The translations under genes were made by a program, and so were the position numbers. From Mytilus trossulus (lineage: Eukaryota), in contig NC_086380.1 in assembly GCF_036588685.1 (NCBI RefSeq), positions 26,226,001 to 26,290,000 on the forward strand: a DNA stretch of 64,000 bases, written 5' to 3'. Positions 1,351-50,500 of this stretch are shown here, in pieces; the first letter of the stretch is position 1; every line of letters starts with the position of its first letter. The notes beneath the pieces were generated by a model. The model was not told the DNA's origin. It searched no databases and saw nothing but the letters and a program-made list of their open reading frames with translations.

Positions 1351-1554
1351 AATATATTAAAGTGGTTAAAAATGAGTAGCATAGATAATATAAATATCTA
1401 CAAGCACTTAAGACTATTATCTAATTATTTCCATTTGTATACATTCATATTAAAATAAACATGTATTGACTGGGTATGAGGGTAAGACTCCTTACTTTCT
1501 TCATATACGATTACTCATTGCTTTCAAACATATACCAACTTAAAATTGTTAGAT

Positions 1555-18300: not shown

Positions 18301-21300
18301 CCTTCATGGCTTCAATAAACATTACATTGAACACCAAATCGGAGGACTTACCTTGTTTGTATTGGATACCAAAGCATTAAATTCCGTACAAACAACGGTA
18401 TATTGGTGGCTCATCTTCATGTTCCACTAAAGAATTGTCTATTAGATTGACTAAAATTCTGTCCGCAGTGAAAGAGGGTCTTCAGAAATACTGTGAAACT
18501 GTTTACTCGCGTAGTGGTATTAACCATATGTGGATTTTTAAAAATTCTAAAGAACTTCTAGACAATTTCAAATCTCGGTCTCTTTCTGAAATAAGTTCCA
18601 TCAAAACTTTTGATTTTTCAACCCTGTATACCACCATTCCCCATGTAAAATTGAAAAATCGCCTAAAAGAAATTATCCACATTGCCTTTCAACATAAAAA
18701 TTGTAGCATACGCTATAAATTTATTACTTTGGGATTTCATAAAGCAAATTCGTTAATAGTGACAAACAAAAAGGTAAATCATAAACGTATACAATCAAAT
18801 GCATCGATTCCTCTATTGGCAAAATCAACAGGAAGGAATCTCCTCTTTTCTTCATGTAAAGGTTCAGATCTTACTGGTTTGAAAAGACGGAAAAGAGCTA
18901 CATCACAAGTCAGGAATATGACAGTTGTTACCCATTCGTTTGATGTGTTTGGACTTTTGATTTTTGATTTTCCTTTTTGAATTTTCCTCGGAGTTCGGTA
19001 TTTTTGTGTTTTTACTTTTTATGCTACACAGAAGAACAAGTAGTCAGTATGCTGGAGTTTCTTATCGACAACATATTTGTTGAGTTTGGAGGTAGACTTT
19101 TCCAACAAGTTGTCGGCATTCCTATGGGAACAAACTGTGCGCCTCTTCTTTCCGACCTCTTCTTATTTTCATATGAATCGGAGTTTCTCCAGACACTTGT
19201 CAAAAACAAAAAGATCAAAGAAGCCAGATTATTTAATTTCACTTTCAGATATATTGATTATGTTCTTTCCTTAAACAATCCGAACTTTTCTGATTGGGTT
19301 CCATTAATATATCCCCCAGAACTCGAGATTAAAGAAACAACAGACACGGCTTCCTCCGCCTCATTTCTAGACCTTTATCTCGAATTTGACTTACACAGTC
19401 ATCACAGTACCAGAATCTATGACAAACGAGACGATTTTAATTTCGAAATTATAAATTTCCCCCACCTTAGTAGCAATATACCAACTTCACCTGCATATGG
19501 GATATATATTTCCCAACTTATTCGATAGTCAAGAGCTTGCAGCTCCTACTCAGACTTTGTGAAACTTCATCAGTGTCTGAGTAGAAAGTTGATGAACCAG
19601 GGGTATGTCAAAGAACGTCTCGTCCTTTTTCTAAAAAAGTTCATCGGAAGGTACCAAGACCTTGTTGATAAATATTCCGTATCAACTTCTCAAATGATAC
19701 ACGATGGTCTTGATGTATAGATTCTGCGTACTGATGTTGTGTATCATTTTAACAACATGTTTTATTGTTCTTTTATTTGTTTTTGTTCTATTATTAAGAT
19801 TACTTTTACTATTGAATGGTTGTATGTGATATCCGTTTGACGTGGCTCGGTACTCATACATATCGTCAAAGTGTTTGTATTGGCTTTCATTTTTTGATGA
19901 TTTGTTTTGTATATGTGACTCTTTGTATTTCTTTTGTGCTTATAACGTGACTCTGTACTTTAAAAGATCCCGTTAGTATGATATTTGTCTATAATATGTC
20001 ATTATGATATATTTCTATTATGAATTACTATATACGTTGAACCACAAACGTCAAAATCAATCAATGGCGTAGTGGAATTAACATTTTTTGGATTCTCATA
20101 AATTCTATGTATAACTTTTGGACTAGTTTGAATCTCGGTCTATTTCTGTAATTTATTCTTACATACTTTTGTTTTTTTAACCCTGTATGCGTACATTGCC
20201 TATGAAAATTCTAAAATTGTTTGTATGCACATTGAACGACAAATTTATGTGACGTATATAAATTTTCTGACGTCAGACACTCAAATCAATCCATGTGTTC
20301 GTAGATTGTAGATGTTATTGTGTCCTGTTAAATTGTTCCTTTTAAAAGTTTTGGATTCTGATAAATTCTATGTATTACTTTTGGACTAGTTTGAATCTCG
20401 GTCTATTTCTGTAATTTATTCTCACATACTTTAGATTTTTTAACCCTGTATGCGTTCATTGCATATGTAAATTTTAAAATTGTTTATAATCCTGGTACTT
20501 TTGATAACTATTGTATGCACATTGAACGACAAATTTATGTGACGTATATAATTTTTCTGACGTCAGACACTCAAATCAATCCATTTGTTCGAAAATAGTA
20601 GATGTTTTTGTGTCCTGTTAAATTGTTCCTTTTAAAATTTTTATACGATGATGACTGATGTACCCATATTTTGACTATTTTATTAATTGTGACTGTTTAT
20701 TTAACGCATCATGTAAATGTAGCGGAATTTGATGAGACTGTTATTAAAGTGAGAGGGTTAGCGCTATAGAACCAGGTTTAATCCACCATTTTCTACATTT
20801 GAAAATGCCTGTTCCAAGTCAGGAATATGACAGTTCTTGTCCATTTGTTTTTGATGCGTTTTGATTTTGCCATGTGATTATGGACTTTCCAAATTGATTT
20901 TCCTCTGAGTTCGGTATTTTTGTGATTTTACTTTTTTCAAAAGAACACAAATTGACCCATTGGTGGTTATAGCATTAACCATAAAAGTTTTATTACACAA
21001 GCTTTGCATTTTGCAATATAATTTGTCTAAGGTGATGTACGTGGTCAAAATATTTTACAAAAGTAATTCTATATTTGTATAGAGTTTTTCTTTCTATTAT
21101 CTTTTATGTGAATATATGATAAATGGAGAATAATACATGGCAACATCCGTATCATATGTCGTATCATCCTGATACACCAAAACCAGCCCAAGGGCATTTA
21201 GGCCCGAGGGATGATATTGGTCGAGGGTGATACGGCATGTAATACGGATTTTGCCATGTTTAATATGCTTTATCATATATTTCAACAGTAGAGTATTATA

Positions 21301-24300
21301 TTGAATTAACTGTTTTCTAATCCATAGCACTTGGTTACCTTCAGTTCTATTTTTGTCTTGTTTTGAAAGCCTTAAAAGAGCTGCTCAATTACTTATCCAA
21401 GGCACCTGGGTTACCTTACAATTCGCGGGTTGTTGTTTTTAAAAATTTTGTTTATTTTTGTATTTTTTGGTGTGTTTTGTATTTTTTATAGTTGCGTTTA
21501 GTGTGTAAAAAGATATGAAAATTTGACGTTCGTGACTTCACATGTACGTACCAAATAATGACCTCATTAAATAAATTTCGTCTTGCCTGAATGATCGTTC
21601 TATTGGAACTCTTTTTATGAAAAATATTTCTTAAGCTTACATAGATAAAAACTGACTTTTATAGAAAAAAGTAGGGGGTATGATAATAGGTATGCGATAA
21701 AGGGTGCGCATCAAAGTTGCGCGAAATGGATTAAACAGCAGGCTTTTTATCAAATATTTAAAACTACTGTATTTACCATGTTTACTACTAAACATATGAT
21801 AAAATAGTATAATTTGAATAAGAGCTTCTTACTATTGCATGGGCTCCAACTTCCATCTTCAATATTGATATTGCATTTCTTAATATCGATACCATCTGTA
21901 CTTTGGGTAGATGATGACTGGTCTTTTGTCCCCCACAGTAATCTACGCATTAAACTGGTTTTCCCGACTCCATTTTTACCAATAATAATAACTCTTGCAA
22001 AATAATGTTTTCCACACTCTTCATTTTGAAAGAGTTCATGTATATCCGTGTGTATATCTTCATGTGTTGATGACAGTAGGGGCTCTTGAAACAAAATTAA
22101 AGAGAACAAAAATTTTGAACAAGGAACTCATTTTTTAATCTTTCAGCTTTAAACGTTCACTTAAAATGAACAAAAAACGTAATGCGATTTGCTAGACTGA
22201 GTCCTCTTTTCAAACTTATTTAGTTGGGTTTTTTTTTTGGAAGTTCACCGTAAAATTATCATGTTGTTCTGAAGATTATTTACATTTCTCTAGTAATTGT
22301 GTTTATGAATTGATGCTGTTCTGATGGCGTTGTGTACTTAGTATAATGATGATTCAGAATTTATATTTTTATTGCAACACTATATTATGATTATAACCAA
22401 TAATATATACCGTCATTTTCTTTTTCATTCAGCTGTACAGGTAGACTTTCCACGGCGCCAATTATGTTACTAGCCTTGCATTTGTATATATCGTATTGAA
22501 GTTCATCAGATGTCTCAAAAATAACTGTCCTCAGTCCTTTGCCGTTCGATTCCAAACTTGACTTTGTGTCCACAAATTCGTTATTCAAAAGAAGTCTACA
22601 CCATCCAGCAGACGTAAGTGGTAAATAAGATCGAACATAACATTTCAATACAGTTGTTTTTCCTCCTTGATCATATGTAATAGTTTCTTGAGAAAGAATT
22701 GTTGGTAAGACTAAAAAGCAAATAAACATTTTAGTTCATTCTGTAAGTTTTGTTTTTAAAATATATAAAAATGAGAAGAGACTTTTCCAAAAGTCACATG
22801 AAAGTTTAAATAACATGATATAAAGATTATAATTAAACATGCTGCCAGTTCCACTTACATAGTATGAATTAAGTGTCAGTCATTTCCTTTCACAATGTTT
22901 ATCCCCTAATTATCACATTAGTTGTAAAATATAAAACAAATGTAATAATATCTTTTTACGCAATTTAGATTGTTGTTTTGCATAATTTGAAAGAGGATTG
23001 CTGCTCAGTAGGAAGCTATTAAACCAAAAGTTCCAAATAGAGAAGTTGAAATCATCTCTTCGTAAATTTTACAGACGCCGTCAAGAGTTGGTTGACCGTT
23101 ATGGAATAATCGTTTCACATATGATATCGGGTATGTTCATTATGTCGTAGCTCCAATACCTTTCCCTTTTCACGAATTTTACCTACGAATTAGACTATTT
23201 ATCGGATTTACAAAAACAGAAGCAACACGACTATGGAGCAGGTTCTGCCTACTCTTCCGGAGCACCTGAGATCACCCGAAGTTTTTGTGGGGTCTGTTGT
23301 GCTTTTGTCTTTTGTTTTCTATGTTTTAGCCATGGCGTTGTCAGTTTATTTCCAATCTGTGCGTTTGACTGTCCCTCTAGTATCTTTTGTTCCTCTTTTG
23401 TAAGTCAGAGTATTCTGTTACATCGAACTATACTGGACTGTACTTCCTATACCAACTATGAAAAATACATTTGGACATCTCTCAAAATGTACAGCTTATG
23501 CGTATTTTAGTTTATTATAGTAGTGATAAAATAAGGAACTTACCAAAGACATAACACTTCAACGATGTAATTATGATAATGGCAATATAAACTGAAATAT
23601 AAAATGGTAATCAAATATGAGTATAAAAGAGGGACAAAAGATACGAAAGGGACAGTCAAACTCATCAATCGAAAACAAACTGACAACGCCATGGCTAAAA
23701 ATGAAAAGGACAAACAGAAAAAACAATAGTACACATGTCACAACATAGAAAACTAATGTATAAACAACACGAACCCCACCAAAAACTAGGGGTGATATCG
23801 GGTGCTCCGGAAGGGTAAGCCGATCCTGCTCTTCATGTGGCACCCGTCGTGTTGCTTATGTGATTACAGTAGGTCACATTCACTATCCATAATAAACTAC
23901 CATTTTCCATTTTTAGATGGCAACGTTCCAAAAATTCAAAACAATTGTGCCATATGCGGATATAGTCATAGGGTCTTGGCATCGGAAATACACACATTTA
24001 TTCTAAAACCTGTTGTTGGCGTGACACGGGTTATGTTTTTTTATATATATTTTATGATAGTGTGATACTAAACCCCTGGAGCTGGCATATCAGTAACTGC
24101 TAGTTGTCATTTGTTAATATATGTACAATTGTCATTTATTCTGCATTGGCTAGAGGAATAGGGGAATGTTTAGATATAAAAAAAACATGTTTAAGTATCG
24201 ATGCATTTTTTCGTCTGACCCAAATCAGGGACGTTTGGCCTTTGATAATATCATTTTTTTTTTGTATTCGTTAATTTATATTGGTTTGGGTTCATGTTCA

Positions 24301-27300: not shown

Positions 27301-30300
27301 GTGATGAAAGACGAATTTTATGAAAAACAAGCTACAACGAGTATTTGCTATTCGTTCCCAAAAAGAATCGTGTGGTTAATACACTGTACAATATATTTTT
27401 ACCCTCAATGCTCTCCAACTTCGTACTTTATTTGGCTCTTTACATCTTTTTTAACTCGACCGTCACTGGTGAGTCTTTTGTAGACGAAACGCGCGTCTAG
27501 CGCAAAAACAAAATTTCAATCCTCGTGTCTTTGATGAGATTATTGGACAAGAATGGTAGCCACTCTATGGAGAAAAACAGAAAATTGTGCTTTCCCAAAT
27601 AAAAATTTCCCACGATATCCCGGTTTGAGAAAGCGACGAATTTTATAATCACAAGAAGAGGAATATGAAAATTTTGAATGATCTGCAGCGCTGAAGATGA
27701 AAGAATCAACAATCTATTTACGGAAGGCGACACGAGTAAGTAATAAATTGTTAATAAACAAATTTAATCACAGAAATTTATCGGTAGTGGTAACTTACCA
27801 AAAACGAAACTGACATAAACTTATGCTTTTTACAATATCATTGACCGTCAAACCGTCATGTTTCCGTCTAGGGTGGACTTTTTCAACAATCATTTGAAGA
27901 AGCGACGAACAGACCCTGCGGATTCCTTCTTGTTAATCTTATACTCGGAACGACGAAATCGTAAATACGGTGAACTGATGTTTTGCAGACTAGCAAAGAA
28001 AACAACATTTCTGACGATCTAAATTGAGGGCATTGAAGGTGCAACATCAGACATATTGGATAACATAGAGGATTTTATAGCACATCTACAGTGTGGATTG
28101 GCGTTTGCACCGGACCAAAATTGTCAAGATAAATCTAGTCTTCATGTAGATCGTCATTTTTATTTGAAATTGTGATGCACTTGTCATAGATCTACTTATA
28201 ATTTGTTTATTAACAATTTATTACTTACTCGTGTCACTGTGTGTATTACTGTCAATGTACTGAACTGTTAGGTTGTCGTTTTTGAGCGATCTGAAAAGGG
28301 TAACAACAAAATAAATTTCATATTAACAAAAAAAAACAAAGAGGCTATGGCCTTCATGTTTCAGTGCCACGATATGGTCGTTACTATTAACATTCTATGT
28401 TTTATGAAGTCAAAGAATCTTATTTCAATTTGAGATACCTACAAACAAATATGTATACATGTTTGAATAGTAAAACGTCTGAGTTATAAGCACAAGTAAA
28501 CTTGCTTATATATTTTAATAGTGCAAATACCCTCAATTAATATACTTAATTCAATTATACAGCGTTAGTATTTAGATGTGTTTATATAATATCATCGTCT
28601 CCATAGAAAATATGTGTCCAAGAAAAGGATATGTGCTGTAACTGACAACGAACATACAAAACCACTGAATAAACGCTATTGCTTGTCAAGAGTGTGAACT
28701 GAAATAGCAAATAATTTTGTTACTTTTAATTATGTTACTGCATTGATAAAATGTGTTTGATTTTTTCTTATTTAGTTTGGCGATACAAAATAAAGATAAC
28801 ACTCCTCAATTAAGCTTTGAGGTGCCAATATAACATAAATAACGAATCAGTTTCTTCACTACAAAGATAAATATTTTGTTTGCAAACTTAAAAAGCCAGT
28901 AATGCGTCTTATACTCACCCAAATTAAAGATGCAATTGATCAGGTACTAAGAGATGAACAAGCAGGTTTCAGATCAAACAGAAGCTGCACTGACCAAAAA
29001 GCAACACTACGTACCATCATTGAACAATCAGTAGAATTGCAATTATTCCTCTACATCAACTTTGTCGATTTTGAAAGGGTGTTTGATAAAGAACAAAGTC
29101 GGGATGTGACAATTGCTAAGGCATTATTGTATACAAACAAAATGGTGAACATGATCAAGGCAATGCACGAGGATTTCATAGTACAGTTGATACAATAATC
29201 ATCATTCACAAACCCTTTTCAATGGAAATAATGGTGTGAAACAAGGCTGCCTACTCTCCCCTACATCATTCTTGATAGCTATTGACTTGGTAACTAAGCA
29301 TGAACTAGACACTACACCAAGAGGTATACACTGGAACTTCGCACAAAGGCTAGAAGACCTAGATTTGGCAGATTATCTGGCTTTGTTATCTCACCGTTTG
29401 AAAGACACGAGAGACAAAATCCCTCCATGAAACAGGCAAAAACTAGAGCTGCAAATCAAAATCTAGAAACAAAAAGTATGACAGTAAAGACCAGAAAAGG
29501 AGGAACAGTGTCAATTGCTTCTACGAAAAATTTAAAATATTCATGACATTCACCGAGCTACAGACTAGATAGAATTAAAGTAAGCTTTTCAGTCTTTTTT
29601 CAACTTTTCCATTTGACTTTAAGCAAGAAACAATCAGCCTACTAATTTTCTCACATATCACTTTTCATTAGGTCATTGCAGTCCTACTGCTACGTTTATT
29701 ACCATCCCTTATTATTCTGAATACTTCATTGTGGTTGTTAATAACAAAAAGATGAACAGTAAGTGTTTAATTTTAGCATATTTTCAATTTAAAAAAATAA
29801 ATGTATGCAATCAATAACATACATCAAACAGTGGTTTGGTAATAACCTGTTGTATTTTAGTCAATGACGTGTAGTGTTGTTATTTTTGTATCTGAAATTC
29901 AAAAGGTACTAAGCAAGAACTTCCATGCAAAGGCTGCATATCTAAAATATCACATTGTCTTGTAATGATGTAACTTACACTTGTTGGTATATTTCCTGAC
30001 ATGGTTTCGTCGCTTTTATATCTCCATCGGTGATGCATTGATAATCTATAGAAAAAAAAACAAATAATGGAATTGATAAATTAATTCATTCATCACATTA
30101 AATGTGTACTTTAAATGTTAATGTACAGTGATTTTCCTTTAATTACTTCAATTTTCGCTATTAATTTGATGTGTTCATACATGTTATATGTGACGATAAT
30201 CTTGATTTCAATTAAGTTGTAGTATGTTGATATTCGTTACATTAAATATTCAAATACTGTTCGTAAAAGAAGATTAATTCAGCTTTGCTACAACATACTC

Positions 30301-33141
30301 TGCATTTCTAGTTAGCATTATGGAAGTAGTCCTTTAATATAGAGTTATGTGTATACGTGACCCTCAGATGTTGTCTGCTCTATGGTCGGGTTGTTGTCTC
30401 TTTGACACATTCCTCATTTTCATTCTTAATTCTATATCTTGTTTTTGAAACAATGTTCCTGAGATTATGTCTCCAAACTGTATTTCATTTTCAATATACT
30501 AATCATATATAGTAGCCTAAAAACATACATCAGTTTTTATCAATTTCCAAACACTTTGTTCGTAGATAAATTAACTTGTGTCTAAACTTTAAAAAGTTAT
30601 GTTATCAATTTTGGTCGTCTGAATCTATCTTTTGTAACACTGTAACGTCATTTTTCAAATTGATGTTTATTATAATGATTTGAAGTTCAAACATTTGTCC
30701 ATTAGATCAGTAGAAAACAATTAATTGGATAAAGCTCAAACACATCAAACGAACGGACAATGCTTGGTAATAAATCATACACATACAAGGTGATATGTTA
30801 TCGTTTCACATGAACATTTTCAATTGTTTATAGCAACAATTATGTCAATTGAAACTCACCAGATGATAGGTTGGAACATTTCACTTTGAAACACGAGCAA
30901 TCTTCCGTTGATGGTTTACAGAAACAAGTGTTATTTGGTCTTGAAACGAACGCATATCCCCGTGTGTAGTCACAGCGACAAGCTGTATCAATACTATATG
31001 ACTCATTGCTGTAAACAATCTGTCCTTCTTCGTCACACTTTGATTTTCTAAGGATACATTCACTGTTTCCATGGGTAGTGAATACAACAGGTTGATATCT
31101 TCCGTCATTACATTTTGCTAGATTAAACAACGGTTGGAACACTAGCTTACTCCCTTAAAGTAGAAGACCTTAATGCTATATTCTAAATTATGTACTATCG
31201 AAGACTTCTGTGCAATTTTTATTTTACTGTTACATTTTTTATAATCAAGTTTTATTTTGTATTCAATGTTTTTGCCCGTTCTTGTATTGTAGTGCTTTTT
31301 TGTGGAAAAAATGTAGTATCGGTTTTAGTCAAGATTTTTGGGGAAAGTTTCAGATTCGAAACCATTTCGAAATACCTTGCTACAATTGTCTATATCTATA
31401 TAAATAACAAGGATTATTTAATGCAGACATAGCAATTATAACAACTTGTCATGGCGACAATTTTTAGTCCGGATAACAAGTTACAAACAAGGACCAATTT
31501 GATACACATGTTAAATTTCAAAGACAATAATTTTGCTCTCTTAACACTTATACCTTATTCGTTATTCATAGAGATATTCTAAGCATTGAATACATATGTT
31601 TTATAAAAAATAAACTAACAAACCTTATTTTTCAATATATAAATTGTGTAATGTTGATATCGGTAAAAACTAAACGTGTGCAATTAGCACTCATCATGCA
31701 GAGCATTGAAAACGGAATCAAACTACGGAATTCAAATAAGGGCTATTACAACTGCATGTAACGTTTTTGTCCCTAAATTTTAAAATTGTAGGTGCAATTG
31801 AACAACTAATTTACACTTTTACCATGCTAATATTATTTTTAGTAAATGTGCAAAAGTATGCCTCAAAGTTGGTCATCAATTTTGAACATTTTTCTTTCTT
31901 TATCTAGACCTGAAAGATTCAGTGATGCTGGTAGAGGTATCCAGCTGTAGCCTGCATGTAGAGTGGACCCCAGTTAACAAATTGAATCCAACAGTTGGAC
32001 TGATCTTGGTTCAGCAGTCTACAGAAGGTCCGAATTTGTGCTTAAAATGCAATTTATACAAGAGAAACATGACCATAGATAGCCTCAAGGTGACGGAACA
32101 TACATACATGTAACTTTCGAGATAAGTACTATTATGCTGACTTCTCAAAGTGTGGAGCCAAATAACAGTGGTCTGGGTACGCCCATCATATGAAGGTCAC
32201 CGCATGGTAAGGGTTCAGAACTTATTAGTTCCATAAAAAAACTGACCTATATCAACTACATTATGGAAATCTCAATTTTTGAGAGAAAAAAACGTGTTTC
32301 AACCAGTTTTACCTATACTACTTTGATCTGAACCTAAACAACTCTCCTCGTATTTTTCTCCCAGTAAATTGAACAAACACACGTATTTTGATTCCGAATA
32401 ACACGAAATATTTGCTCTCAATCTCCATTCTGCTTTGGTTGGACATTTAAGGTCAAATCCAGTTACTGTTCCAATCATCTAAAATAAAGATATGAATTAT
32501 CTATTTCCCTCATTTTAAATCATGTTAGTTAATCATAATTTATAACAAAGAAGTTACATTCAAGGAAAAACAGTATGTCATTAAACGATGTGATATGCTG
32601 AAATCAGAAAAACAAGCCTGGTATACTATTTTATTTGTTTAAACTACTTTTAAGATTTAGCATTTAAAGATTTCACTGTAACTTGTACTCATCTGGGATT
32701 TATTGATCAAGGATGAAATGTTTTCACAAACGGGTATTAATTTACCTATATAGTCCATAAATAACATATAATGACAATATTATTAACACTATCAGATTTA
32801 CTGCATGTTGAGTATGAATATTAATTTGTACAAAATGCATTTGATATATGATATATAACTTTCGAACACTCAAATGAATTGTGTGAATCTAACAAGTACT
32901 TGAATATTGTATTTTTACTTCCATTGCCTATGACTTGATCTTCAATTTCCTATGCTGAATCGGGTATATTTTATTAAGTATACTACTATTTTAGACATAG
33001 ATTACAGTGGATAAGATGAGTTCATATATACTTTTGATTTTTCATAGAATCAAAATATTGCGACGTCAACAATTTTAATTGTTGATATCGTTCGCAGAAT
33101 AATTTTGATCAAACATTTACCAAGATCAGTAGAATGACCAT
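5142..33141 (-). CDS. Transmembrane receptor-type Roco protein (SP, TNFR-like Cys-rich ectodomain, TM, Ig, Roc GTPase, COR), ~1080 aa, at least 11 coding exons
   Basis: GT-AG exons: 33121-33141, 32313-32478, 30860-31153, 29979-30045, 25996-26046, 23544-23591, 22411-22710, 21833-22084, 8236-8952, 7067-7176, 5142-6344. All junctions are phase-compatible except 29979->26046 (phase 2 vs 1). Motifs: GKNGVGKT, STDGIDI, WDFAGQ, VCTNED, FVSN, then COR. Confidence 0.8.
7067..7176 (-). CDS. Roco exon with Roc G4 region
   Basis: tttacag|..YVRFWFDAIHCYW..PPIIVVCTNEDKIK|gtaaag; phase 1 to 0. Confidence 0.88.
8236..8952 (-). CDS. Roco exon: low-complexity insert followed by Roc G3
   Basis: ctcacag|..IDHDLARLIQQV...ALWDFAGQKDFYATHQVFLSKCAVFLLV..DTA|gtaag; phase 1 to 1, 717 nt. 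Confidence 0.9.
9037..9502. mobile_element. MITE with TA target duplication and internal (ACACCAT)n arrays (Tc1/mariner-like ends)
   Basis: TIR cagtccttggatggtgcaaact / agtttacaccatccaagggctg, TA on both sides (9035-9036, 9503-9504), two degenerate heptamer arrays. Confidence 0.8.
9690..10065 (+). repeat. Interspersed repeat (probable PLE terminal fragment); related copies at ~7540-7715 (+), ~4660-5030 (-), ~7300-7350 (-)
   Basis: Shared gttgatgtgttt..tttgt(a/g)ac..cgatttatga..aac(a/g)gcg motif. Confidence 0.55.
10240..12760 (+). mobile_element. 5'-truncated, decayed Tx1/L1 LINE (RT and C-terminal Cys region) in the large Roco intron
   Basis: KAFDSLDWEF, GIRQGCPLSAILFVFAVEILA, LADDT, EGGLGMIDI, CSVCG..H...C; many stops and frameshifts. 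Confidence 0.88.
11582..11918 (+). mobile_element. Short interspersed repeat inserted into the L1; further copies at ~48736-49050, ~49872-50185 (+) and ~25595-25727, ~30365-30432, ~45515-45581 (-)
   Basis: aaaattga(c/g)aatggaaatggggaatgtgtcaaagagacaacaacccgacc...gacttgggacaggcgcaaaa..gcggggttaaaca recurs; it interrupts the L1 reading frame. Confidence 0.8.
14733..15614. mobile_element. Kolobok-like MITE
   Basis: TIR ggagactcgcggata / tacccgcgagcctcc, RR termini, flanked by ttga / ttaa. Confidence 0.65.
15990..16138 (-). repeat. Fragment of the hammerhead-bearing repeat family, truncated at the ribozyme
   Basis: Reverse complement reads acgcgtgtttggc..aactctggtatctataat..gtcgatgccactgctggtg, similar to the region 3' of the HHR at 39281. 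Confidence 0.5.
17083..17159. repeat. Palindromic hairpin element
   Basis: tggcctgggccgtgatattcg ... cgaatatcacggcctaggcca. Confidence 0.8.
17470..20937 (+). mobile_element. 5'-truncated Penelope-like retroelement (Naiad-type RT, no C-terminal GIY-YIG), inactivated
   Basis: CDC..SP...GHVITGDL, GPKFREP, VPADK, YWIPK, TFDFSTLYT, QVVGIPMGTNCAPLL, FRYIDY (YIDD mutated), YDKRDDF, YGIYISQLIR. ORF ends ~19720, then a long 3' region ending in ...gattttactttttt. Confidence 0.9.
20086..20637 (+). repeat. ~263-bp tandem direct repeat in the PLE 3' region
   Basis: 20086-20348 and 20349-20637 are near-identical; the second copy has a 27-nt insert. Confidence 0.9.
21110..21281. repeat. Long palindromic element
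   Basis: catggcaacatccgtatcatatgtcgtatcatcct ... agggtgatacggcatgtaatacggattttgccatg, with extended flanking arms. Confidence 0.8.
21833..22084 (-). CDS. Roco exon with Roc P-loop (G1) and G2
   Basis: FARVIIIGKNGVGKTSLMRRLL..STDGIDI; tttcaag| ... |gtaag; phase 1 to 1. Confidence 0.92.
22411..22710 (-). CDS. Roco exon encoding an Ig-like domain
   Basis: LKCYV..AGW...DIYKCKASNIIG pattern; symmetric phase 1 exon of 300 nt. Confidence 0.82.
22990..23399 (+). mobile_element. PLE 3'-end fragment (family also at 26540-27172 +, 56420-56620 +; 23626-23870 -, 55170-55310 -, 56880-57420 -)
   Basis: LLSRKLLNQ..KLKSSLRKFY.R remnant followed by the ggagcagg..cttccggagc..ttagccatggcgttgtcag..cctctttt tail. 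Confidence 0.8.
23544..23591 (-). CDS. Roco micro-exon, second half of the TM helix
   Basis: tatatttcag|..YIAIIIITSLKCYVF|gtaagt; 48 nt, phase 1 to 1. Confidence 0.75.
23626..23870 (-). mobile_element. PLE 3'-tail copy, inverted relative to 22990-23399 and 26540-27172
   Basis: Reverse complement matches 23324-23399 and ~26950-27172. Confidence 0.8.
24310..25590 (-). mobile_element. Decayed PLE (3' RT end plus terminal repeat)
   Basis: Minus strand gives PFLDLDI, DFSFPIVNFPFLDGDVSLAPS*GVYVSQLVRYARVC; the tail contains gtggtatgattgccaatgagacaac. Confidence 0.8.
25996..26046 (-). CDS. Roco micro-exon, first half of the TM helix
   Basis: gtaatttcag|..VSDAYQVSYIIIFIIA|gtgagt; 51 nt, phase 1 to 1. 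Confidence 0.75.
26540..27172 (+). mobile_element. Internally deleted PLE (RT fragment plus 3' tail)
   Basis: NIFVSFGERVFQQTVDIPIGTNCAPLLVDLFLYYYEADF, then KLKSFLRKFYGRHHE and the family tail. Confidence 0.85.
27240..27990 (+). pseudogene. Polinton/Maverick packaging ATPase fossil, interrupted by a hammerhead repeat
   Basis: Across stops and frameshifts: FSMMVY*PSS**KTNF (decayed Walker A), PKRIVWL, GQEW*PLY, RNMKILNDL, DERINNLFTEG, HRNLSVV, FEEATNRPCGFLLVNL..TDVL. Confidence 0.7.
27461..27503 (+). ncRNA. Degenerate type I hammerhead ribozyme (core CUGGUGA)
   Basis: cgtca ctggtga gtct tttgt agac gaa acgcgcgt c tagcg. Confidence 0.55.
28900..29520 (+). mobile_element. RTE-clade LINE RT fragment
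   Basis: LRDEQAGFRSNRSCTDQ..LRTIIEQS..YINFVDFE; GVKQGCLLSP; LEDLDLAD.LALLS. Confidence 0.85.
29979..30045 (-). CDS. Roco exon, end of the Cys-rich ectodomain
   Basis: ttctatag|DYQCITDGDIKATKPCQEIYQQ|gtaagt. Confidence 0.75.
30860..31153 (-). CDS. Roco exon, TNFR-like cysteine-rich ectodomain
   Basis: CNDGRYQP..GNSECILRKSKCDEEGQ..DTACRCDYTRGYAF..CFCKPSTEDCSCF; phase 1 to 1. Confidence 0.85.
32313..32478 (-). CDS. Roco exon 2 (end of signal peptide, first four Cys)
   Basis: tattttag|MIGTVTGFDLKCPTKAEWRLRANISCYSESKYVCLFNLLGEKYEESCLGSDQSSI|gtaaaa. Confidence 0.82.
33121..33141 (-). CDS. Roco first coding exon (signal peptide start)
   Basis: aaaATGG context with in-frame upstream stops; MVILLIL|gtaaat joins exon 2 to give MVILLILMIGTVTG. 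Confidence 0.65.
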
Positions 33142-33776: not shown

Positions 33777-34718
33777 TGTTTCAGACCATACCCATATGGT
33801 CATGACCATATGCGTATACTCATTTGGTCTGACCATACGTGTATTTTCCGACCGTACGCGTATGGTCAGACCATATGAGTATAATACACGTTTGGTTATT
33901 AAAGGTCCGGACCATATAGGTATTTTTGTTTAAATTACATTATAAAAATTTCAATAAAACAAAAACTGTATCTAAAAAAAGAATGACGGTTTCATGACAA
34001 TGTATTATTTTCATAGTTCAAATACTACGTAAAAATTAAACATTGATGCCATAGATTTTTTTCCCCTTATTACATTCTTGCATGTAGGCTTGGGTGAAAT
34101 TTACCTCCACATGGTATCATAGATTTTTTTTGCAATTGCAAGTCTTGATTGTGCACAACCCTTTTCATTTACACCTTAAAACCTAGTCTTTTTGTAGCTG
34201 CGTACAGTGATACAGAAGTCTTGTGCCATTCCGATATGTCTACGGTGTTTTAAGAAGCTCTATATCTTACATATCGTAACATGATTGCAATACAACACAT
34301 TCACAAGACAACTTAAACAAACTACGTTAGTTTCAAGTGATCTTTTGTGTAGCAGTTCATAAAGACATTTTTGGAATTTATTTATTGAAGTCGACAAATT
34401 GCCATTCACTCGTAATAATAAATCGGTAATGACTATCGGTAATGACCATCGATATACAATGTGTTTATTATAGTTTTGACAGTTAAGTAAAATTAACAAT
34501 GTGAAACTTTTAATTTTCATTTAGCTAATCTTTTATTATAATATAATAATTAAATTACCTATACGATAGAGTCTTTTTAATAAACAGTGACATATGAAGA
34601 TTTTAGAAGTATCAAAAGTAAACTGTAACAGATTGTTAATTACCCCGACCATATGATTATATACCCATATGGTCATGACCATACGCGTATGGTCCAAATC
34701 CTCATATGGTCCGGAACA
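33777..34718. mobile_element. Non-autonomous TIR element with 8-bp TSD and palindromic subterminal repeats
   Basis: TIR tgtttcagaccata / tatggtccggaaca; flanks tgtgcatg / tatgcatg; repeated gaccata..tatggtc units at both ends. Confidence 0.75.
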
Positions 34719-35045
34719 TATGCATGGACAAGACTTTCCACTTCTGTGATTTAAGAATATAAGTCAGTAATTGTATATCAGCAGTTGTATTGGAGTGATA
34801 TCATGCATCATAGAATATCGTGATTATATATATTGAATAAGGTTCAAATCCCGAATGTGTTTTTTAGAGTCAAAAACATTATGGGCTTATAGCTACGAAT
34901 TTCAATAAAAAAGAAAAACATGCAGTTAGAACAAAAGTTCTAAACTGCCATCACCTATAAATTACTAACTCTAAATAAAATGAATCTACAAAGAATTTAG
35001 TCCTATCTCTTGCGTCAAACTTTAAATAGAAAAAAATATACCAAT

Positions 35046-35272
35046 TACATGTGGTTATTTTTATAATTTTCCTGTTTACAAAATTTTCAACTTTTGGAAA
35101 AACTAAGGATTTGCTTATCCCAGGCATAGATTACCTTAGCCGTATTTGGCCCAACTTTTTGGAATTTTGAATCCTCAATGCTCTTCAAAATTTGTTTGGC
35201 TTTAATAATATTTTGATATGAGCGTCACTGATGAGTCTTATGTAGACGAAACGCGCGTCTTGCGTACTAATT
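35046..35272 (+). mobile_element. Short hammerhead-bearing repeat (retrozyme or PLE pseudo-LTR-like)
   Basis: Highly similar to 39090-39360; partial copies at ~27400-27545, ~49688-49765, ~54960-55120. Confidence 0.8.
35222..35265 (+). ncRNA. Type I minimal hammerhead ribozyme (intact core)
   Basis: GCGTCA-CTGATGA-GTCT(tatgt)AGAC-GAA-AC(gcgc)GT-C^TTGCGT; one stem I mismatch. Confidence 0.75.
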
Positions 35273-38200
35273 TATATGTCGAAGAAACTATTGAAACACT
35301 TAAAAGTCTTATTCAAGTGATAAAATTAGTTAATGTGAAAGATTTTAGCTGATTTACTTTTTAAAAATGCTCCGAATCAAGCTTAAATATAAAAAATCTA
35401 ACAAATATACCATAAAATGTAACTTTTCAGATGGTTTTTGTCAAAAATGAACGTGGACGCATCCGTGTTCATCCTCAACCTTTATATATGTTATGATCTG
35501 TAATGAAATACAAATTAAATTTCAATATAAAGAATGAACACAAATGCGGCCATTTTCATTTAAGACGGAAACCGTCTAAAATATAATTAAAATGCTAACT
35601 TGTGAAGATTGCAGTAATTTAACATGACTTAATTGATGCTAGTACCCGATATATGTGCATTATTTTGTAAAAAATCAGCCAATATTTATGCAAAAATCTT
35701 TTAAAATGCCTCAATTAAAGTTTAAAGCTTACACACTCAAATGTCTAGTTTGACCAACATTACAATACTGTTGAACCAATTAGGATCCACATACGAAAAT
35801 GAGTCCGAGTCATCTGCAACCACTTCCACAGCACCAATGTAATGAGTTACTGATACGATAATAGATTCAAATTGGTACCAACTTAAAATAAGACGATTAA
35901 GATTCACACTTGTGTTTTAGTATTCATGTACACAATTATGCATCTAATTATCTCATCCAACCTGCTTATTCAATTAGAAATAATAACAAGACATAGAAAT
36001 CCACAATCATTTAGACAACAACAGACACTAATTTTGTCTGCCCGCAGCTGAACATTCGAATTAATTGCCACAACAAATTGATCCAATCAGTACAGTAGAA
36101 AGTTGAATACCAAACTCAGCTATTATCCTCTTCTCTTTTCTGGTTATGATTTAGTTTTATCTACATGTAATTCTCATTAACGAGTTATGCGCCACAGGGC
36201 CAATAAATTGACCTAAGCAATATCTGAAATATGCCAGAGGGCCAATATTATGGACCTTAATTGGTAAAAATATTTATCACATTTTTACAACAATTACGGC
36301 TTTATGTTTTTATGAAAATAAGCTGTTTGATAACTACGACAGTTAAATTCAAATAATTCAACGGTTTGATTATGTATACTGTAAACAATATTTTGACGTT
36401 GAAGTTTATATCGTCACTTTCACAACAACAACAGGTACCCGCGCAGGAGCAACCCAAACGTTAGAATACTAAAGTCATATATATGAAAATTCAAATTTAC
36501 AGAAAAATTTATTATTACTTATAGACTTGCGTACACAGATTTTACTGTAAACAATGTAAGAAAATCCTTTGTACGTGTTCTGTTATCAAATTATTATCTA
36601 TATGTTATAAAATCACGAAAACAAAAGTAAGGATTGTAGGGTCAAAATTTTTAAAAAAAATCCGAGAGTAACGAACTGTGGTGATCATTGCAAGTACTAG
36701 GGGAAATTCGTGACGAACGAATGTAAACAAACGTACACTGCAATCAAAATAATAATAAAGATTTTTTAAATAAAGACTAATCATTCAACAATCTGTTAAA
36801 AGGAAAAGCGTTTGATTAAACAAAAGGAAACTCATGGAAAATATATTAAAAAAAAATATGTTATTCTTTTATTTTTCATATGCTAGCTACGCGTGCTATG
36901 TTTGATTGTTTATCAATGCCAAAATCCGGTAAACTCCGACAAAACACTCGATTAATAACCTTGAAATCATCAACCATTTACTGAAATATTAATTGTCGAT
37001 AATACGTTATAGATTCGTAATAAATTTTAGCAACGTGCATACATGCATAATTTCCGGAAAAAAAATGTATGCATACATTAGTTCAATATTTTTTATAACC
37101 CTATAGTGCAATAAACTCGTTCCCTGCAAAATACAATTTCATGACTAAACATACACTGTTGCGATCTATAGAACAAATGGTGTTTATTTTAACCATTTAC
37201 ATGTTTATTGATAAAAAATATCTCACCGGCATTTACAAGTTCTTCTATTAAGCTTTTCTTTGCATTTGCAAAATTGCCATTTTTCCAAAGAAGAATTGTG
37301 AGAAAAACTACGGGAAATTGCACGAATATGAAAGTCGTCCAAGAATATATAACGGGAGCGTTGAGAAATGCGGCAAATATGGCAAATATGGCATCTCCTT
37401 GGTTCCGTTTTTTTCTGCCGGAAGAAATCGTTGAAGACCCCGAATTTATTGGTGAAAGTGGTGTAAAGAATATGCCAGACAGAGGAGCTCCTGCAATAAC
37501 AAACAAATAAGAAATCTCGCTATTCTGGCATTTCTATCTTCATAAAACCGAAACAATATTATTGATAGAGTATATATCTGTTTTGTCATACTTTCTCATG
37601 GAGATAATTTAGTTGGTTCATATCTTTGCTTTTCCTACAAAATGTGTATGTATCAGTATAATTTAACAAACACATTTTTCGTCTGCATGCGAATTTCCTA
37701 AAATCTTATCTTATGATTATTTTTAACCTCCCCCAAATCCATCCTCATTTAAAAAAAAAGAAATATTAGCACAATTTCCCGATGTTTAAAATAACTACAA
37801 AAGAAGTGAAAAGTCTAGTAGAATTATCAAAGTAAATAGATCTACAACCAAAGGCATTATTAAAAATTGTTTCAGTATGATAAGTTGGAGTATTTTTTTT
37901 TCTTTTGGATGCGCGTGTCATGAATATAAACTGTATAATAATGATTGTGTGTAACTACTTTTTCCCGTTTTGTGAACGCAATTTAGGAACGTCGATGTCC
38001 AATTCCTTGTTTGCCGCCGAAAATAATGTACTTCTATAAAGACCTACAAACCTTTTAATGTAATATTTGTTTTGAATTAACGAAAATCATTTACTTCCAT
38101 GAACGTATTCATGTTTCATTTCATTAATTAGATAAGTGAGAAACCCCCTTTTATTTTAAAGACATTAAATATGTAGTTAATATTTATAGGTTTATAATTA

Positions 38201-39089
38201 CCCACGGTCCGAGCCCCAAGTAGAACAAAAACGCCTCAGAAGAATCTTCATAGAACCTCAAAAATATTTACGAAAATATTGCTTATTTCATAAACATAAA
38301 ATTAACGGACCGCACCGGACCGGAATATTAGCAGACATTTGAATATATGATGCAGCTAGAAAAAAAAATGATTAATTTCTTATTCTATATTGACTTATTT
38401 ACAGCTCGATAAATACAGTGCGGTATTACAAAACGAACATTCAAATAATAAGCATGCAGATAGAATTTTTTGATTTTTGTTTTTAATAAATTTACAGTTA
38501 AACTATTTTACATCATTTAGCGTACATATTTTCTGATGTGGTGACATTTATATTTCAGATATTCCCGATCATTTATCAAAACAACACGCAAAGGATCAAC
38601 AGATGTAGACATTCATGTGTCCACCAATGGATTAAGATTGGGCCGCTCACAATTATTGAATTCAAAGGGTTTCTTGTCACTATTTACAATATTGGACTGA
38701 ATAAGAGACCGACACTACAGTGCTACTGGAAAAAAGGGAAACAAAAATACAAGTGGTTAAGAAAGATGTTTCCAAGAAATAGGTTTCAATTAATTTTAAA
38801 ATTTGTACATGTTGTTGGTAATCGTAAAGTGTCAGGCAGAAATGATACAAAATACTACCCATCGGCCAAGATTAACCCGATTCTTGAATCATTGAACATG
38901 CGATCCAAATTTCTGTATACACCTAAAAGAAACCTAAAAGTCTACTGAACGTTAGTTGTTTATTTGATAAAGAATACCATGTGTTTTTTTCTAGTCTATC
39001 ACTAGCATCAGAACTGCTTTTAAATATGACATTTATGACTGGAAGTAACCGACCAATGCCACAAAGAATTAAAAAAAGCAGAATTACAT

Positions 39090-39360
39090 GAATATCAATT
39101 ACATGGTCATTTTTATAAATTTTCTGTTTTCAATAACTTTGAATTTTTCGAAAAACTAAGGATTTTCTTACCCCAGGAGTAGATTACCTTAGCCGTATTT
39201 GGCACAATTTTTTTGGAATTTTGAATCCTCAATGCTCTTCAACTTCGTCTTTATTTGGCTTTTTAACAATTTTGATCTGAGCGTCACTGATGAGTCTTAT
39301 GTAGACGAAACGCGCGTCTGGCGTATTAAATTATAATCCTGGTACTTTTGATAACTATTT
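39090..39360 (+). mobile_element. Hammerhead-bearing short repeat inserted in piggyBac
   Basis: Splits the transposase segment KKAEL|RPDEYVF and ends in ttataatcctggtacttttgataactatt. Confidence 0.8.
39281..39324 (+). ncRNA. Type I minimal hammerhead ribozyme (intact)
   Basis: GCGTCA-CTGATGA-GTCT(tatgt)AGAC-GAA-AC(gcgc)GT-C^TGGCGT; all three stems pair; predicted cleavage after 39318. Confidence 0.85.
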
Positions 39361-39826
39361 ACGTCCGGATGAATATGTATTTATGAGAAGACAAGAAACA
39401 TTAGTATGTGAATACAGACAAACCAAACGGAAACCATCTCGCCTTATGTCTACATTTTGCACAGCACGAGTTTCAACTCAACAGCAAACATATGGGAGGA
39501 GTCGATCGAAATGACATGTTCACAACATTCTACAGCGATGAAAGGAAAACCATCAAAATGTGGAAAAAAAATATGTTTAATCTTTTTCAAAGATTCATGA
39601 TGAACGCGTACATTCTTTACCTAAAAAACTCAAACAACCCTCATCCACTTTCACGCCTCCAGTTTATTAACGAGGTAGTTGGAAGTTTGTCAATGGAACA
39701 CATGAGAGATAGATTTCCGGGTCAGTTAGAAAATTAAAAAAAAGAACCTCGAGGATAAGCCAACGGCAAAGTGACAGATTGTGTTGTATGTTCATATCGA
39801 AGTAAGGAAGCGATCAAGATTACAAT

Positions 39827-47562: not shown

Positions 47563-50500
47563 TTATATTTCTTCTGTATTTGTAGAATTGTTCATATCTA
47601 AATAATCTGTCGAAATATCGAAACGTTGAACGTGTTCATGGTCTTCGTCGCAGTCCCAGGAATACACCCTTTGGTGTTTATCTGTGTTATATGATTTATC
47701 AGTGGAGTCAATGCAATCGTTGTCTTCATTGAGTAACTTCTTTGATACTCCATGACAAGCATCCCCTATTGTTTGTCCAAAGAATAAATGTGAATGAAGC
47801 TGCCCTTTTTCATTATCTATTCTATCGGTTTTCTTCCTATTTAGCAACTCGATAGATTCTATGTCCGTACTGTTTTTATTTCTACAGTCATGTATTTTAT
47901 TTTTCAAATTAATATTCATTTCATTCGACGTTGTTGTTGCTTTCTCATATTCGTGATTATGAGTACTTCGATCTTTTTGCAGTTGTTGATAAACGTGAGA
48001 ATATTTATAACTAGAACTCATATCTTCTGACGACTCGGATCCAGATGAACTCTCGGAATGTTTATGAACATGAACCGTAACTTCATAGCCATCTGATATT
48101 TGTTGTCTTTCACGAAGAGGTTGGTAGGGATTGAGATATGCTGTATGATCGATAATAATAGGATCAAAGTTCGATGAATCACTAGAACTTGATTCCTTCA
48201 ATGTGCTTGGGTTTTCCGTTTCTTCCTCTGCAAAATATGGATCAAGATAACTTGAGGCATCATCGTGACTACTTGTTGATTTATCAGAACAAGTCTTTGA
48301 TACAGCTGCATTGATATTCCTTAATTGTGGTGTTACTGCAGTCTCCTTGTTGACCTCTGCTATTAAGTGCTCGTCAATTTCATCGTATATTTCAATGTAT
48401 GGTGGTTCAGCTATCTCTTGTCTTATTTCTATATCTTCTCCTCCATTTTGTCTTGGTATTTTAATTGAAGATCGTTTTCGATATGAACGAATAAAATGAC
48501 TTAATCCAATAATTATCAGAAATCCAATAACGCAGAGTGTGTATACAATCAATTCCATGTTTGAAGGTCCTACAAGATCAACAACATAAAGCGTTAAAAT
48601 AAAATAGCAGAACTCATGAAGAGTAAAACATTAAAAGTGTAATGACTCAGAATTTGTGACATAACAAAATGATTAAAACGATACATAGGGGAAGAACAAA
48701 AATTGTGCTCACGTCATAATTTTCTGTGCAAGTTGAAATTGAGAACGGAAATGGGAATATGTCAAAGAGACAACCAACCCATGGGACCACCAACGAACAG
48801 ACAACAGCCGTGGCCACCAATGAGTCTTCAACGCAGCAATAAAATGCCGCATCTGGTGGTGGTCCTCAGCTGGTCCTCAAATAAAATTGTGTACTAGTTC
48901 AATGAAAATGGGCCTCACACTAAACTCCAATACTTATACATGAACTAAAATAGAAAAACTTACAAGACTAACAAAGGTCAATAGCTCCTGACTTGGGACA
49001 AGCGCAAACATGCAGCGGGGCTAAAATTATTTTGTGAGATCTCATTCTACCTCATTAGCAAATGCTTTTATCTATATGACTATGAATGTTTTTTAATCAT
49101 CGATCCTTTTATTCATTTTTCAAACAAATTTCAGAAATGTTCGATGAAATACCGATAGTTTCTACATTGTGTATTTTGTTTTGTTTTGAACACTTCTACT
49201 CTGAAGTGTTTTAGAAATGTTTCATTGGTTTATAAAATTAACTTAAGTAATATGTTTTGTCGTGTCTTGTAATTTTCTTTAATTTCAGCTCTCAATGATA
49301 AAACCTACATACGGATGCATTTCAAATCTGTGATTATAAGTATGCTACAAGTAGATTTCATGGTTTACTACTCTTAATTGTGTTATAATACTGAAGTTGG
49401 GGTGAAAAATGCAAAATCAAATTAAACTGCTTGTTGCATTATGGTTTTCGTTTTATGAACATCCTATGAATAATACTATTAAACCTTTTTGGATTGCAGA
49501 AAAGTATTTAACCATAATTGAATTATTACTAGTTTCTTAGAGACGTCAAACTCAAAAATTATTACGAGTTGCTTAAACGAACAAGGGGTAATTTTGGAAA
49601 ACTATATATTACTACAGAAAAGTAATTTGACAAACTGTATGCACATCTTTGGATATAGTTAGGCATTATCTTAAAAGTTCCTTTTTTAGATTACCTTAGC
49701 TGTATTTGTCACATTTTTGGGGAATTTCCTCAATGCTCTTCAACTTTCAACTTGTTTTGGCTTCTAACTGGTTAAACTTTTGAGGAAAATCCCTTTATTT
49801 TACATTCCATTGGACTTACGTCAGTTAATATAAAATGAAGCTTATCGTATGCGTAATAATTATAGCATGAGAAAATTGAGAAAAGAAATGATGAATGTGT
49901 AAACGCGACAAGAACCCGACAATAGTTCAGACAACAGTCGAAGGCCACCAATGGGTCTTCAATGTAGCGAGAATTCCCGCACCCGTTGGTATCCTTCAGC
50001 TGGCCCCTAAAATATGTATACCAGTACAGTGATAATGGTCGTCATACTAAACTCCGAATTATACACAAGAAATTGAAATTAAAAATCAAACAAGACTTAC
50101 AAAGGCCAGAGGCTCCTAACTTGGGACAGGCGCAAAATTGCTGCGGGGTTAAACATTTTAATGAGATCTCAGCCTCCCCTATACCTCTTTATTGTCTTTA
50201 GATACACATAAACGAGTTTATTTTGAATTTTCCTTGGTTTTAAGTATTTTTGTACTTTTACTTTTTTTTTTATGAAAGACTTTTGTTTTAGTAGCAGCAC
50301 ATCATTGGTTTCGTGGTTAAATATTTACATTTTCTTTCAGTCATGTAGCCTGATAGAAAAACAGTTGTATACCTCTGGTATATTTCGCTCCTCTTTCAAT
50401 TCAGAATAATAATAACCTATTTCAAGTTCCTTTGCATATATAATCATAAGTAACGTAACCCAACTAATAAAATTTAGCATGAAAATGAGGACAACAACCC

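Follow-up and report, generated by a model that had tools for sequence, protein, structure and literature searches.

A hairpin shared with Naiad elements marks the insertion end of a Mytilus hammerhead retrozyme and points to its probable reverse transcriptase partner

Introduction

Hammerhead ribozymes lie within a short non-coding repeat in a 64,000-nt stretch of the Mytilus trossulus genome (NC_086380.1, positions 26,226,001 to 26,290,000; hereafter the window, part of contig C8 in a genome of 1.3 Gb). Which element do these ribozymes belong to, and which enzyme copies a repeat without coding capacity? The original prediction, made from the sequence of the window alone, proposed a non-autonomous retrozyme-like family moved by the reverse transcriptases (RTs) of nearby Penelope-like elements (PLEs). 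Judged by its sequence, the repeat is the already published Mytilus retrozyme of the type without long terminal repeats (non-LTR). The family is thus not new, and the copies in the window are ordinary members of a known element.

According to a 2020 review (PMC7761336), no conserved motif is known in animal retrozymes that would reveal their autonomous element. In this study, we find that insertions of the mussel retrozyme stop at a fixed position shortly before a hairpin, which is shared with the start of Naiads, a clade of PLEs. We propose that a Naiad RT probably copies the retrozyme, using a template that is continuous across the ribozyme cut site. Published work is compared here and below on the basis of the cited portions of each source.

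Results

Insertion ends follow a hairpin shared with Naiads

The repeat unit is 355 bp long, and positions within it are counted from the predicted cut site (0). In 40 random 10-kb stretches of the genome, 17/31 of the 3' ends of retrozyme fragments fell at +32 to +51, compared with 1/30 of the 5' ends. The difference became more pronounced for fragments of at least 85% identity (12/15 vs 0/14) and was also seen at loci picked by their hammerhead (44/53 vs 5/53). Several of the 3' ends outside this zone belong to a second subfamily, whose sequence departs from the reference beyond +7. A set of 55 distinct insertions, itself picked for ending in the +32 to +51 zone, loses its similarity to the element at +41 to +44. 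The insertions thus have a common fixed 3' end, located some 40-44 nt beyond the cut site.

Immediately beyond this end, the unit resembles the beginning of Naiad elements. Retrozyme positions +62 to +95 match the sequence that follows the Naiad pseudo-LTR end at 28/34 nt (E ~8e-4). Outside of retrozyme inserts, no other stretch of either of two full Naiads matches the unit better; the match is located at the element start, and further retrozyme-Naiad matches are found upstream of it. No match to the hairpin was found in five PLEs with a C-terminal endonuclease. Retrozyme +45 to +108 and the Naiad start fold alike into two stacked stems, in which pairing is preserved by three double and three single changes; the fold z-scores are -2.75 and -4.05. 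From sequence and pairing, the retrozyme hairpin is homologous to the one that opens Naiad elements. The motif also opens seven published Naiads, i.e., Mgal, Mcor, Bpla, Pmar, Skow, Pfla and Cmel (PMC8557442, supplement).

The position of the motif differs between the subfamilies, at +53 in the main one (146/152) and at +59 in the second (4/5). In both, the retrozyme ends about 8-14 nt before the motif, shifting with it. Because the ends move with the motif, the insertion end tracks the hairpin and not the cut site. Naiads behave alike: their ends lie 10-11 nt before the motif in 44/68 cases, and 5-7 nt into the read-through in 50/68. By their name codes, the seven Naiads with this motif presumably span bivalves and hemichordates. 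In a coarse test for (TA)n after the insertion ends, such runs followed 0/59 retrozyme and 4/67 Naiad insertions, compared with 12/12 loci of C-terminal-endonuclease PLEs. The shared hairpin, the same end position and the similar target profile together make a Naiad PLE the likely source of the partner RT.

A ~550-bp (548-bp) sister repeat (L228:1535-2082, related L213-L242) has a homologous hammerhead with covarying stems. This repeat contains no Naiad hairpin and terminates in (TA)n at about +375. It serves as a natural control for the link between hairpin and end. A third subfamily is represented by a full, terminally redundant copy (L263:3170-3545), in which a sister-type hammerhead is joined to a body like that of the main family, including the Naiad hairpin; this copy ends just before the hairpin. 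As homologous hammerheads are found on Naiad-type and on (TA)n-targeted repeats, the ribozyme may have moved as a module from one host element to another.

Potential mimicry of the Naiad 3' end by the last 24 nt of the retrozyme, persuasive on visual inspection, was considered and rejected, as its scores were equalled or beaten at 5-69 other places in two long Naiads. Chimeric junctions with Naiad-type ends numbered 2/132 against 0.16 expected, which is too few to weigh, and D6, one of three end motifs used, is only tentatively Naiad.

Naiads in the window and in the genome

The PLE RT pieces found in the window are, without exception, matches to Naiads and not to C-terminal-endonuclease PLEs. 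The largest Naiad in the window is 88-97% identical to intact Naiad frames and shows no match to four C-terminal-endonuclease PLEs. It is a relative of the likely partner, unable itself to make the enzyme. The genome contains 149 GIY-YIG matches, 16 of them within open frames of 1056 aa; intact Naiad frames are thus located elsewhere. The 1056-aa frame matches the published motifs of Naiad_Mgal and Naiad_Mcor (PMC8557442).

The 3' untranslated region (UTR) repeat of the Naiad in the window contains a 29-nt piece of the retrozyme 3' end. We rejected this piece as the Naiad's own end, since 30/30 fetched copies read on and the Naiad end lies ~425 nt further. In one Naiad subfamily, a piece of 27-29 nt has become fixed within the 3' UTR repeat and was amplified with it (71 exact junction copies). 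The 3' UTR repeat of the Naiad in the window (20349-20490) resembles part of the element's RT coding region (18509-18657) at ~72-76% identity. Elsewhere, the Naiad start motif occurs in tandem, with seven copies at 131-bp spacing (C12:27544283-27545096) and two at 140-bp spacing (C10:46617703-46617870). These tandems may represent a small repeat without ribozyme that the same enzyme produced.

Insertion shape and template

Target duplications were mostly short. Duplications of at least 6 nt were found at 6/55 insertions (null mean 1.3) and of at least 10 nt at 0/55. Empty sites were recovered for 12/90 insertions, and the overlap was mostly 0-4 nt. The 5' ends showed no excess exactly at the cut site: 40 insertions begin there, compared with 51 (12 of them from a single array) and 40 that begin one nucleotide to either side. 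This lack of a pile-up led us to reject insertion from cleaved linear monomers and indicates that the template is continuous across the cut site. From insertion shape, the template is either a ligated circle or an uncut multimer, and the insertions fit both. At L022, L024 and L215, retrozyme insertions occupy an identical T/A-rich position within a different dispersed repeat; L022 and L024 may represent one duplicated event.

Tandem arrays differ in their make-up. One array of 14 units is nearly uniform. It has a 354-nt variant of its own and a mean of 0.4 differences, compared with ~22 that separate it from other arrays. For the majority of arrays, similarity is higher among the units inside an array than between arrays. 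Long arrays are mixed: one holds 14 distinct units out of 19, in lengths of 355 and 360, and unit types recur.

The family is transcribed, accounting for 5,555 of 8,710,588 records in one raw RNA run filed under a species label that holds the repeat. About 2-5x more first mates mapped to the minus strand, which, assuming the usual stranded library, corresponds to RNA of the ribozyme strand and is evidence at the level of the family. Reads across the exact unit joint (417 + 61 = 478) fit a circle or a multimer alike. Read depth shows no drop at the cut site, and loose ends among the reads coincide with the fixed 3' end of the insertions.

The repeat family and its published identity

The unit has a GC content of 38%, below 50%, and no coding capacity, its longest ATG frame being 34 aa. 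Exact hammerhead cores number 9,462 + 9,173 = 18,635 genome-wide. The reversed-pattern control gave 0, and chance occurrence is thus excluded. Cores are found dispersed singly as well as in arrays, the largest of ~44 units on contig C1; the array at L031 has a 355-bp period and 19.6 copies. The unit thus lies within the 150-450 bp range of metazoan non-LTR retrozymes, which form tandems from dimers to large multimers; each unit carries one type I hammerhead, and the copies in the window are themselves sub-unit stubs. In the 40 random stretches, the 31 retrozyme fragments made up 1.4% of the bases. No LTR structure was seen at array ends, where no search was aimed at a primer binding site or polypurine tract.

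Compared by eye, the repeat agrees with a 375-nt Mytilus sequence from PMC4918200 (Additional file 11) over the whole hammerhead core and other stretches. For Mytilus galloprovincialis, PMC7229834 reports ~5,000 type I hammerheads in repeats of 350-390 bp, a monomer that cuts co-transcriptionally at ~0.1 per min, and abundant circular RNA, with circles as the main RNA form in mussel.

The original prediction correctly anticipated a non-autonomous retrozyme, and mobilisation by a PLE RT, on a template that runs unbroken over the cut site, is very likely. The genome-wide copy number and arrays that it proposed to look for were found. Its ~270-bp repeat is a truncated piece of the 355-bp unit, and the nearby PLE that it took for the mobiliser is truncated and interrupted.

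The hammerhead ribozymes

Both hammerheads with an intact core match Rfam Hammerhead_1 (RF00163), with 33.0 bits (E 2.4e-4) at 39281-39324 in copy B and 28.1 bits (E 0.0095) in copy A. With up to 3 mismatches allowed, the 15-mer core occurs at four sites in the window, all on the plus strand (27483, 35245, 39304, 55087). In copy B, stem I comprises 6 bp, a 4-nt bulge and a distal part of 6 bp, stem II has 4 bp, and stem III has 2 bp closed by a GCGC loop, next to a GUC triplet; all 18/18 drawn pairs are standard pairs. Copy A has the same intact core, but the second pair of its stem I, adjoining the core, is replaced by a C-U mismatch, and two further mismatches are located in the distal stem. 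The predicted cut sites lie after 39318 (copy B) and after 35259 (copy A).

By the helix sizes given in PMC4209133, the ribozyme is a canonical type I hammerhead and not of the minimal PLE kind. The original prediction's two intact-core and two decayed type I hammerheads were thus recovered, together with the core, stems II and III, the GUC triplet and the cut after 39318. Its count of four copies was incomplete, since four further fragments exist (Table 1), and its intact copy at 35222 is intact in the core only. The proposed minimal hammerhead gives way to canonical helices (helix I 6 bp, II 4 bp, III 1-2 bp with a palindromic loop). Cleavage as a dimer, also claimed, is not needed because a mussel monomer is reported to cut alone, although sister families have all retained a palindrome in loop III. 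The proposed Rfam search did return both copies, at scores under the gathering score.

The proposed covariation test gave a divided answer. Within the main family, stem covariation is almost absent (172 contexts). A sister family, found by a structure scan, shows compensatory changes in all three stems, with 4/12 pairs changed on both sides. In the alignment of main and sister families, 96.2% of 371 cells are paired vs 16-46% when partners are slid. This set consists of 31 sequences hand-chosen from 98 distinct ones plus the window copies, with sister copies collected by pattern, and the covariation between families reflects few events. Loop III is palindromic in 155/172 main-family and 26/29 sister-family contexts; the palindrome occurs in three different sequences, which fits the dimer option. 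Separately, C-terminal-endonuclease PLEs carry, by eye, hammerhead-like motifs of their own in their 3' UTRs (L202, L207, L199), some with variant cores and without stem III.

Retrozyme copies and other features of the window

The features of the window are listed in Table 1. Copy B spans unit +125 to +44 (277 nt). A 4-nt target sequence flanks it on both sides, and the 4-nt sequence doubled at the filled site is also the retrozyme's own +41 to +44. The empty site is represented by 11 flank matches, one of them in the C17 haplotype and others in further copies of the transposon that hosts copy B. Contig C17 (2960001-3010000) repeats window 10717-57517 at 97-99% identity over ~25 kb and 87-96% further right, with many indels, and is likely the uncollapsed second haplotype. 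Copy A and both decayed copies are present there as well, whereas copy B is not. Because copy B is absent from C17, taken as the second haplotype, we regard it as a recent insertion.

Copy A starts at +131, is aligned from 35038 to 35276 (+131 to +17) and is present in both haplotypes. Read from the sequence, its 3' end is probably at 35292, after a short internal replacement. Both copies are likely dead, since each has one ribozyme, is shorter than a unit and lacks the hairpin. The inverted repeats beside copy A gave microRNA (miRNA) family matches at 33805-33896 and 35431-35578 that were far below gathering scores; we rejected these and took them as plain hairpins.

Table 1 Features of the window, with positions counted from its first nucleotide.
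Position	Strand	Feature	Basis or remark
127-1356	-	Retroelement remains	Endonuclease open reading frame (ORF)
5142-9016 and 21750-22735	-	Roc-COR gene exons	
10900-12640		Retroelement remains	Long interspersed nuclear element (LINE) RT and zinc-finger pieces
15953-16083	-	Old retrozyme fragment, unit +40 to +162, no hammerhead	79% identity; Naiad-type hairpin region
17464-20936	+	5'-truncated, interrupted Naiad PLE	RT to ~19717, 3' UTR to 20936; fixed end 20936
18783-19020		Short Naiad 3'-end piece, partly inverted, inserted in older Naiad	Absent from C17 version
20484-20512	+	29-nt exact piece of retrozyme 3' end (+13 to +41)	In Naiad 3' UTR repeat
22391-22735, 30840-31154		Possible upstream extracellular exons of Roc-COR gene	
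27403-27502	+	Decayed retrozyme fragment	Core change at A6, stem I mismatch
33784-34694 and 35425-35581		Palindromes and inverted repeats beside copy A	Likely like miniature inverted-repeat transposable elements (MITE-like)
35038-35292	+	Copy A, older 5'-truncated insertion, one hammerhead, without hairpin	86% identical to array unit
35222-35265	+	Hammerhead of copy A	RF00163 match, pair list
36917-39826	+	Decayed piggyBac-like DNA transposon, host of copy B	Pfam DDE_Tnp_1_7 on 38502-38945, E 8.4e-12; left limit is edge of fetched match
39086-39362	+	Copy B, young 5'-truncated retrozyme insertion, one hammerhead, without Naiad-type hairpin	97% identical to array unit
39271-39330	+	Type I hammerhead of copy B	RF00163 match and pair list
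49687-49769	+	Old retrozyme fragment, unit +218 to +305, no hammerhead	
54967-55108	+	Decayed retrozyme fragment	Core changes at C3, G8 and cleavage triplet
57611-57660	+	Old retrozyme fragment, unit +257 to +303, no hammerhead	
61704-62943		Retroelement remains	Gag-like frame with aspartyl protease piece

Discussion

We propose that the mussel retrozyme is probably a circular-RNA parasite of Naiads, which themselves carry no hammerhead, and that the Naiad RT starts at the foot of the hairpin and rolls round a ligated circle. The family is transcribed, mainly from one strand, and in this model tandem transcripts would cleave themselves into monomers that are ligated to circles, likely by a host ligase, as published for mussel retrozymes. 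The Naiad protein would then bind the hairpin, nick AT-rich DNA and start cDNA synthesis internally at the 5' foot, giving insertions that, for retrozyme and Naiad alike, end ~8-14 nt before the common motif, as observed. Synthesis would cross the cut site on a ligated circle or on an uncut multimer; early stops would leave stubs such as copies A and B, and long runs would produce arrays. Copies A and B would both have stopped short of the hairpin, so that neither a unit circle nor a new insertion could arise from them.

Not all observations agree with this model. Mixed arrays are not expected from a single monomer circle without later change. No pile of RNA read ends at the cut site is listed, although a fragmented library is uninformative here, and the reads do not distinguish circles from multimers. 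Both RF00163 matches fall just below the gathering score of 34. Minimum-energy folding was tried as support for the hammerhead and gave none: neither copy has the hammerhead as its minimum-energy fold (z +1.07 and +0.21), and shuffled sequences fold as well as the circular monomer does (z -1.1). On the side of the Naiad partner, the shared hairpin could be a relic of descent from a Naiad without present use, and its comparison in this genome covers the start of one Naiad lineage. A short TA run follows 2/55 ends in the 55-insertion list, and adjacent 5' inversions, a common trait of PLEs, were not found among the scanned loci, nor was any head-to-head pair. The last 24 nt of the retrozyme give no significant match to Naiad 3' ends, and in the main subfamily one C-terminal-endonuclease family scored better. 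All of these points weigh against the proposed model to some degree.

The closest competitor keeps the Naiad enzyme and replaces the circle by an uncut multimeric array transcript, so that circles and cleavage would be needless and arrays would grow by DNA-level exchange. The mixed, recurring unit types and the even RNA depth over the cut site would suit such a template, and ribozyme mutants left insertion of the anole PLE in vitro unaffected (PMC11167929). The nearly uniform 14-unit array, the greater closeness of units within most arrays and the stems that covary between families speak for the circle instead, as does the circle being the main RNA form published for mussel (PMC7229834), and we consider the uncut multimer possible but rather unlikely. 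A different partner, i.e., a hammerhead-bearing PLE with a C-terminal endonuclease (Neptune-like) or a LINE, would turn the Naiad-like hairpin into an inherited relic. PLEs that bear hammerheads are the partner preferred in published proposals. In addition, comparison of the last 24 nt of the main subfamily with the end of a 911-aa family gave a score of 26, as high as at its best place, and the 548-bp sister with a homologous hammerhead ends in (TA)n as those PLEs do. That score, however, is one of 18 comparisons on AT-rich sequence, and C-terminal-endonuclease PLEs lack the hairpin and end in (TA)n at 12/12 loci, which this retrozyme family does not. A tail and a long duplication are traits of LINE-1/RTE insertions; the retrozyme shows neither a tail nor a long duplication of this type (0/55 at 10 nt or more). 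Such a partner is therefore improbable.

Two further explanations deal with the ribozymes themselves. Minimal hammerheads that work only as dimers could be solo pseudo-LTR pieces of a PLE, and the palindromic loop III is retained in main and sister families as if a dimer fold were selected. We consider this quite improbable given the canonical helix sizes, a mussel monomer that cuts alone (PMC7229834), a unit that repeats in tandem without an ORF (longest 34 aa), and the different sequences of the ORF-linked PLE ribozymes in the genome. The ribozymes of copies A and B, located on the same strand 4,059 nt apart, in the same orientation and with both cores intact, might also excise or circularise the intervening RNA. 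As the other haplotype has no copy B, stem I of copy A is mismatched next to the core, and ~31 fragments per 400 kb make chance pairs expected, joint action of the two is very hard to credit. On balance, we favour a Naiad RT rolling round a ligated retrozyme circle.

The family agrees with the retrozyme of Mytilus galloprovincialis (PMC7229834, PMC4918200) in its type I hammerhead, its low-GC repeats of 350-390 bp without coding capacity, its expression and its two similar subfamilies, and the printed stretches match, including the core. The printed 375-nt example resembles the second subfamily, whereas the window copies belong to the 355-nt subfamily. Exact cores are more numerous here (18,635 vs ~5,000), and duplications, mostly 0-4 nt here, exceed 4 bp in metazoan non-LTR retrozymes when present. 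The cited portions of these papers mention neither the fixed 3' end nor a partner signal. We found no published account of the hairpin link and the fixed end; the supplements of PMC7229834 and of a bioRxiv preprint (10.64898/2026.07.22.740005), Figures S4, S5 and S9 among them, could bear on this novelty. That preprint (Li et al. 2026) proposes that vertebrate non-LTR retrozymes likewise use PLE machinery, with dispersed monomers and clustered multimers. It rests on Xenopus pseudo-LTR homology, and its cited portion contains no mollusc, initiation site or Naiad partner.

Naiads (PMC8557442) share with the retrozyme the start hairpin, the relative end position, AT-rich and mostly non-microsatellite targets and 5' truncation. 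They encode an N-terminal GIY-YIG domain and an RT and, in the cited portion, have no canonical hammerhead, whereas the retrozyme has a hammerhead and no ORF. The Anolis Poseidon element PAc (PMC11167929) similarly starts reverse transcription internally, downstream of the hammerhead cut, and inserts into AT-rich DNA; its start sites can be read from the genomic ends, the cut site has no RNA-seq ends, and cleavage was not needed in vitro. PAc is autonomous and belongs to another PLE clade, and its start lies ~85-92 nt past the cut compared with 40-44 in the retrozyme. Minimal PLE hammerheads (PMC4209133) have the same type I topology, palindromic loop III and possible dimer fold. They differ in an absent or nearly absent helix III, a longer helix II and their position flanking an ORF, compared with the canonical helices of the ORF-free retrozyme.

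The 60-nt hairpin shared with Naiads, located exactly at the insertion end, makes the question of the retrozyme's partner testable by means of a single protein and a short RNA. If the proposed relationship is true, enzyme, cis signal and start site would all be named for an animal retrozyme, and the hairpin would be the first cis signal for reverse transcription in the Naiad clade. The mussel retrozyme and its Naiad partner would then represent a compact system that writes a small circular RNA into DNA.

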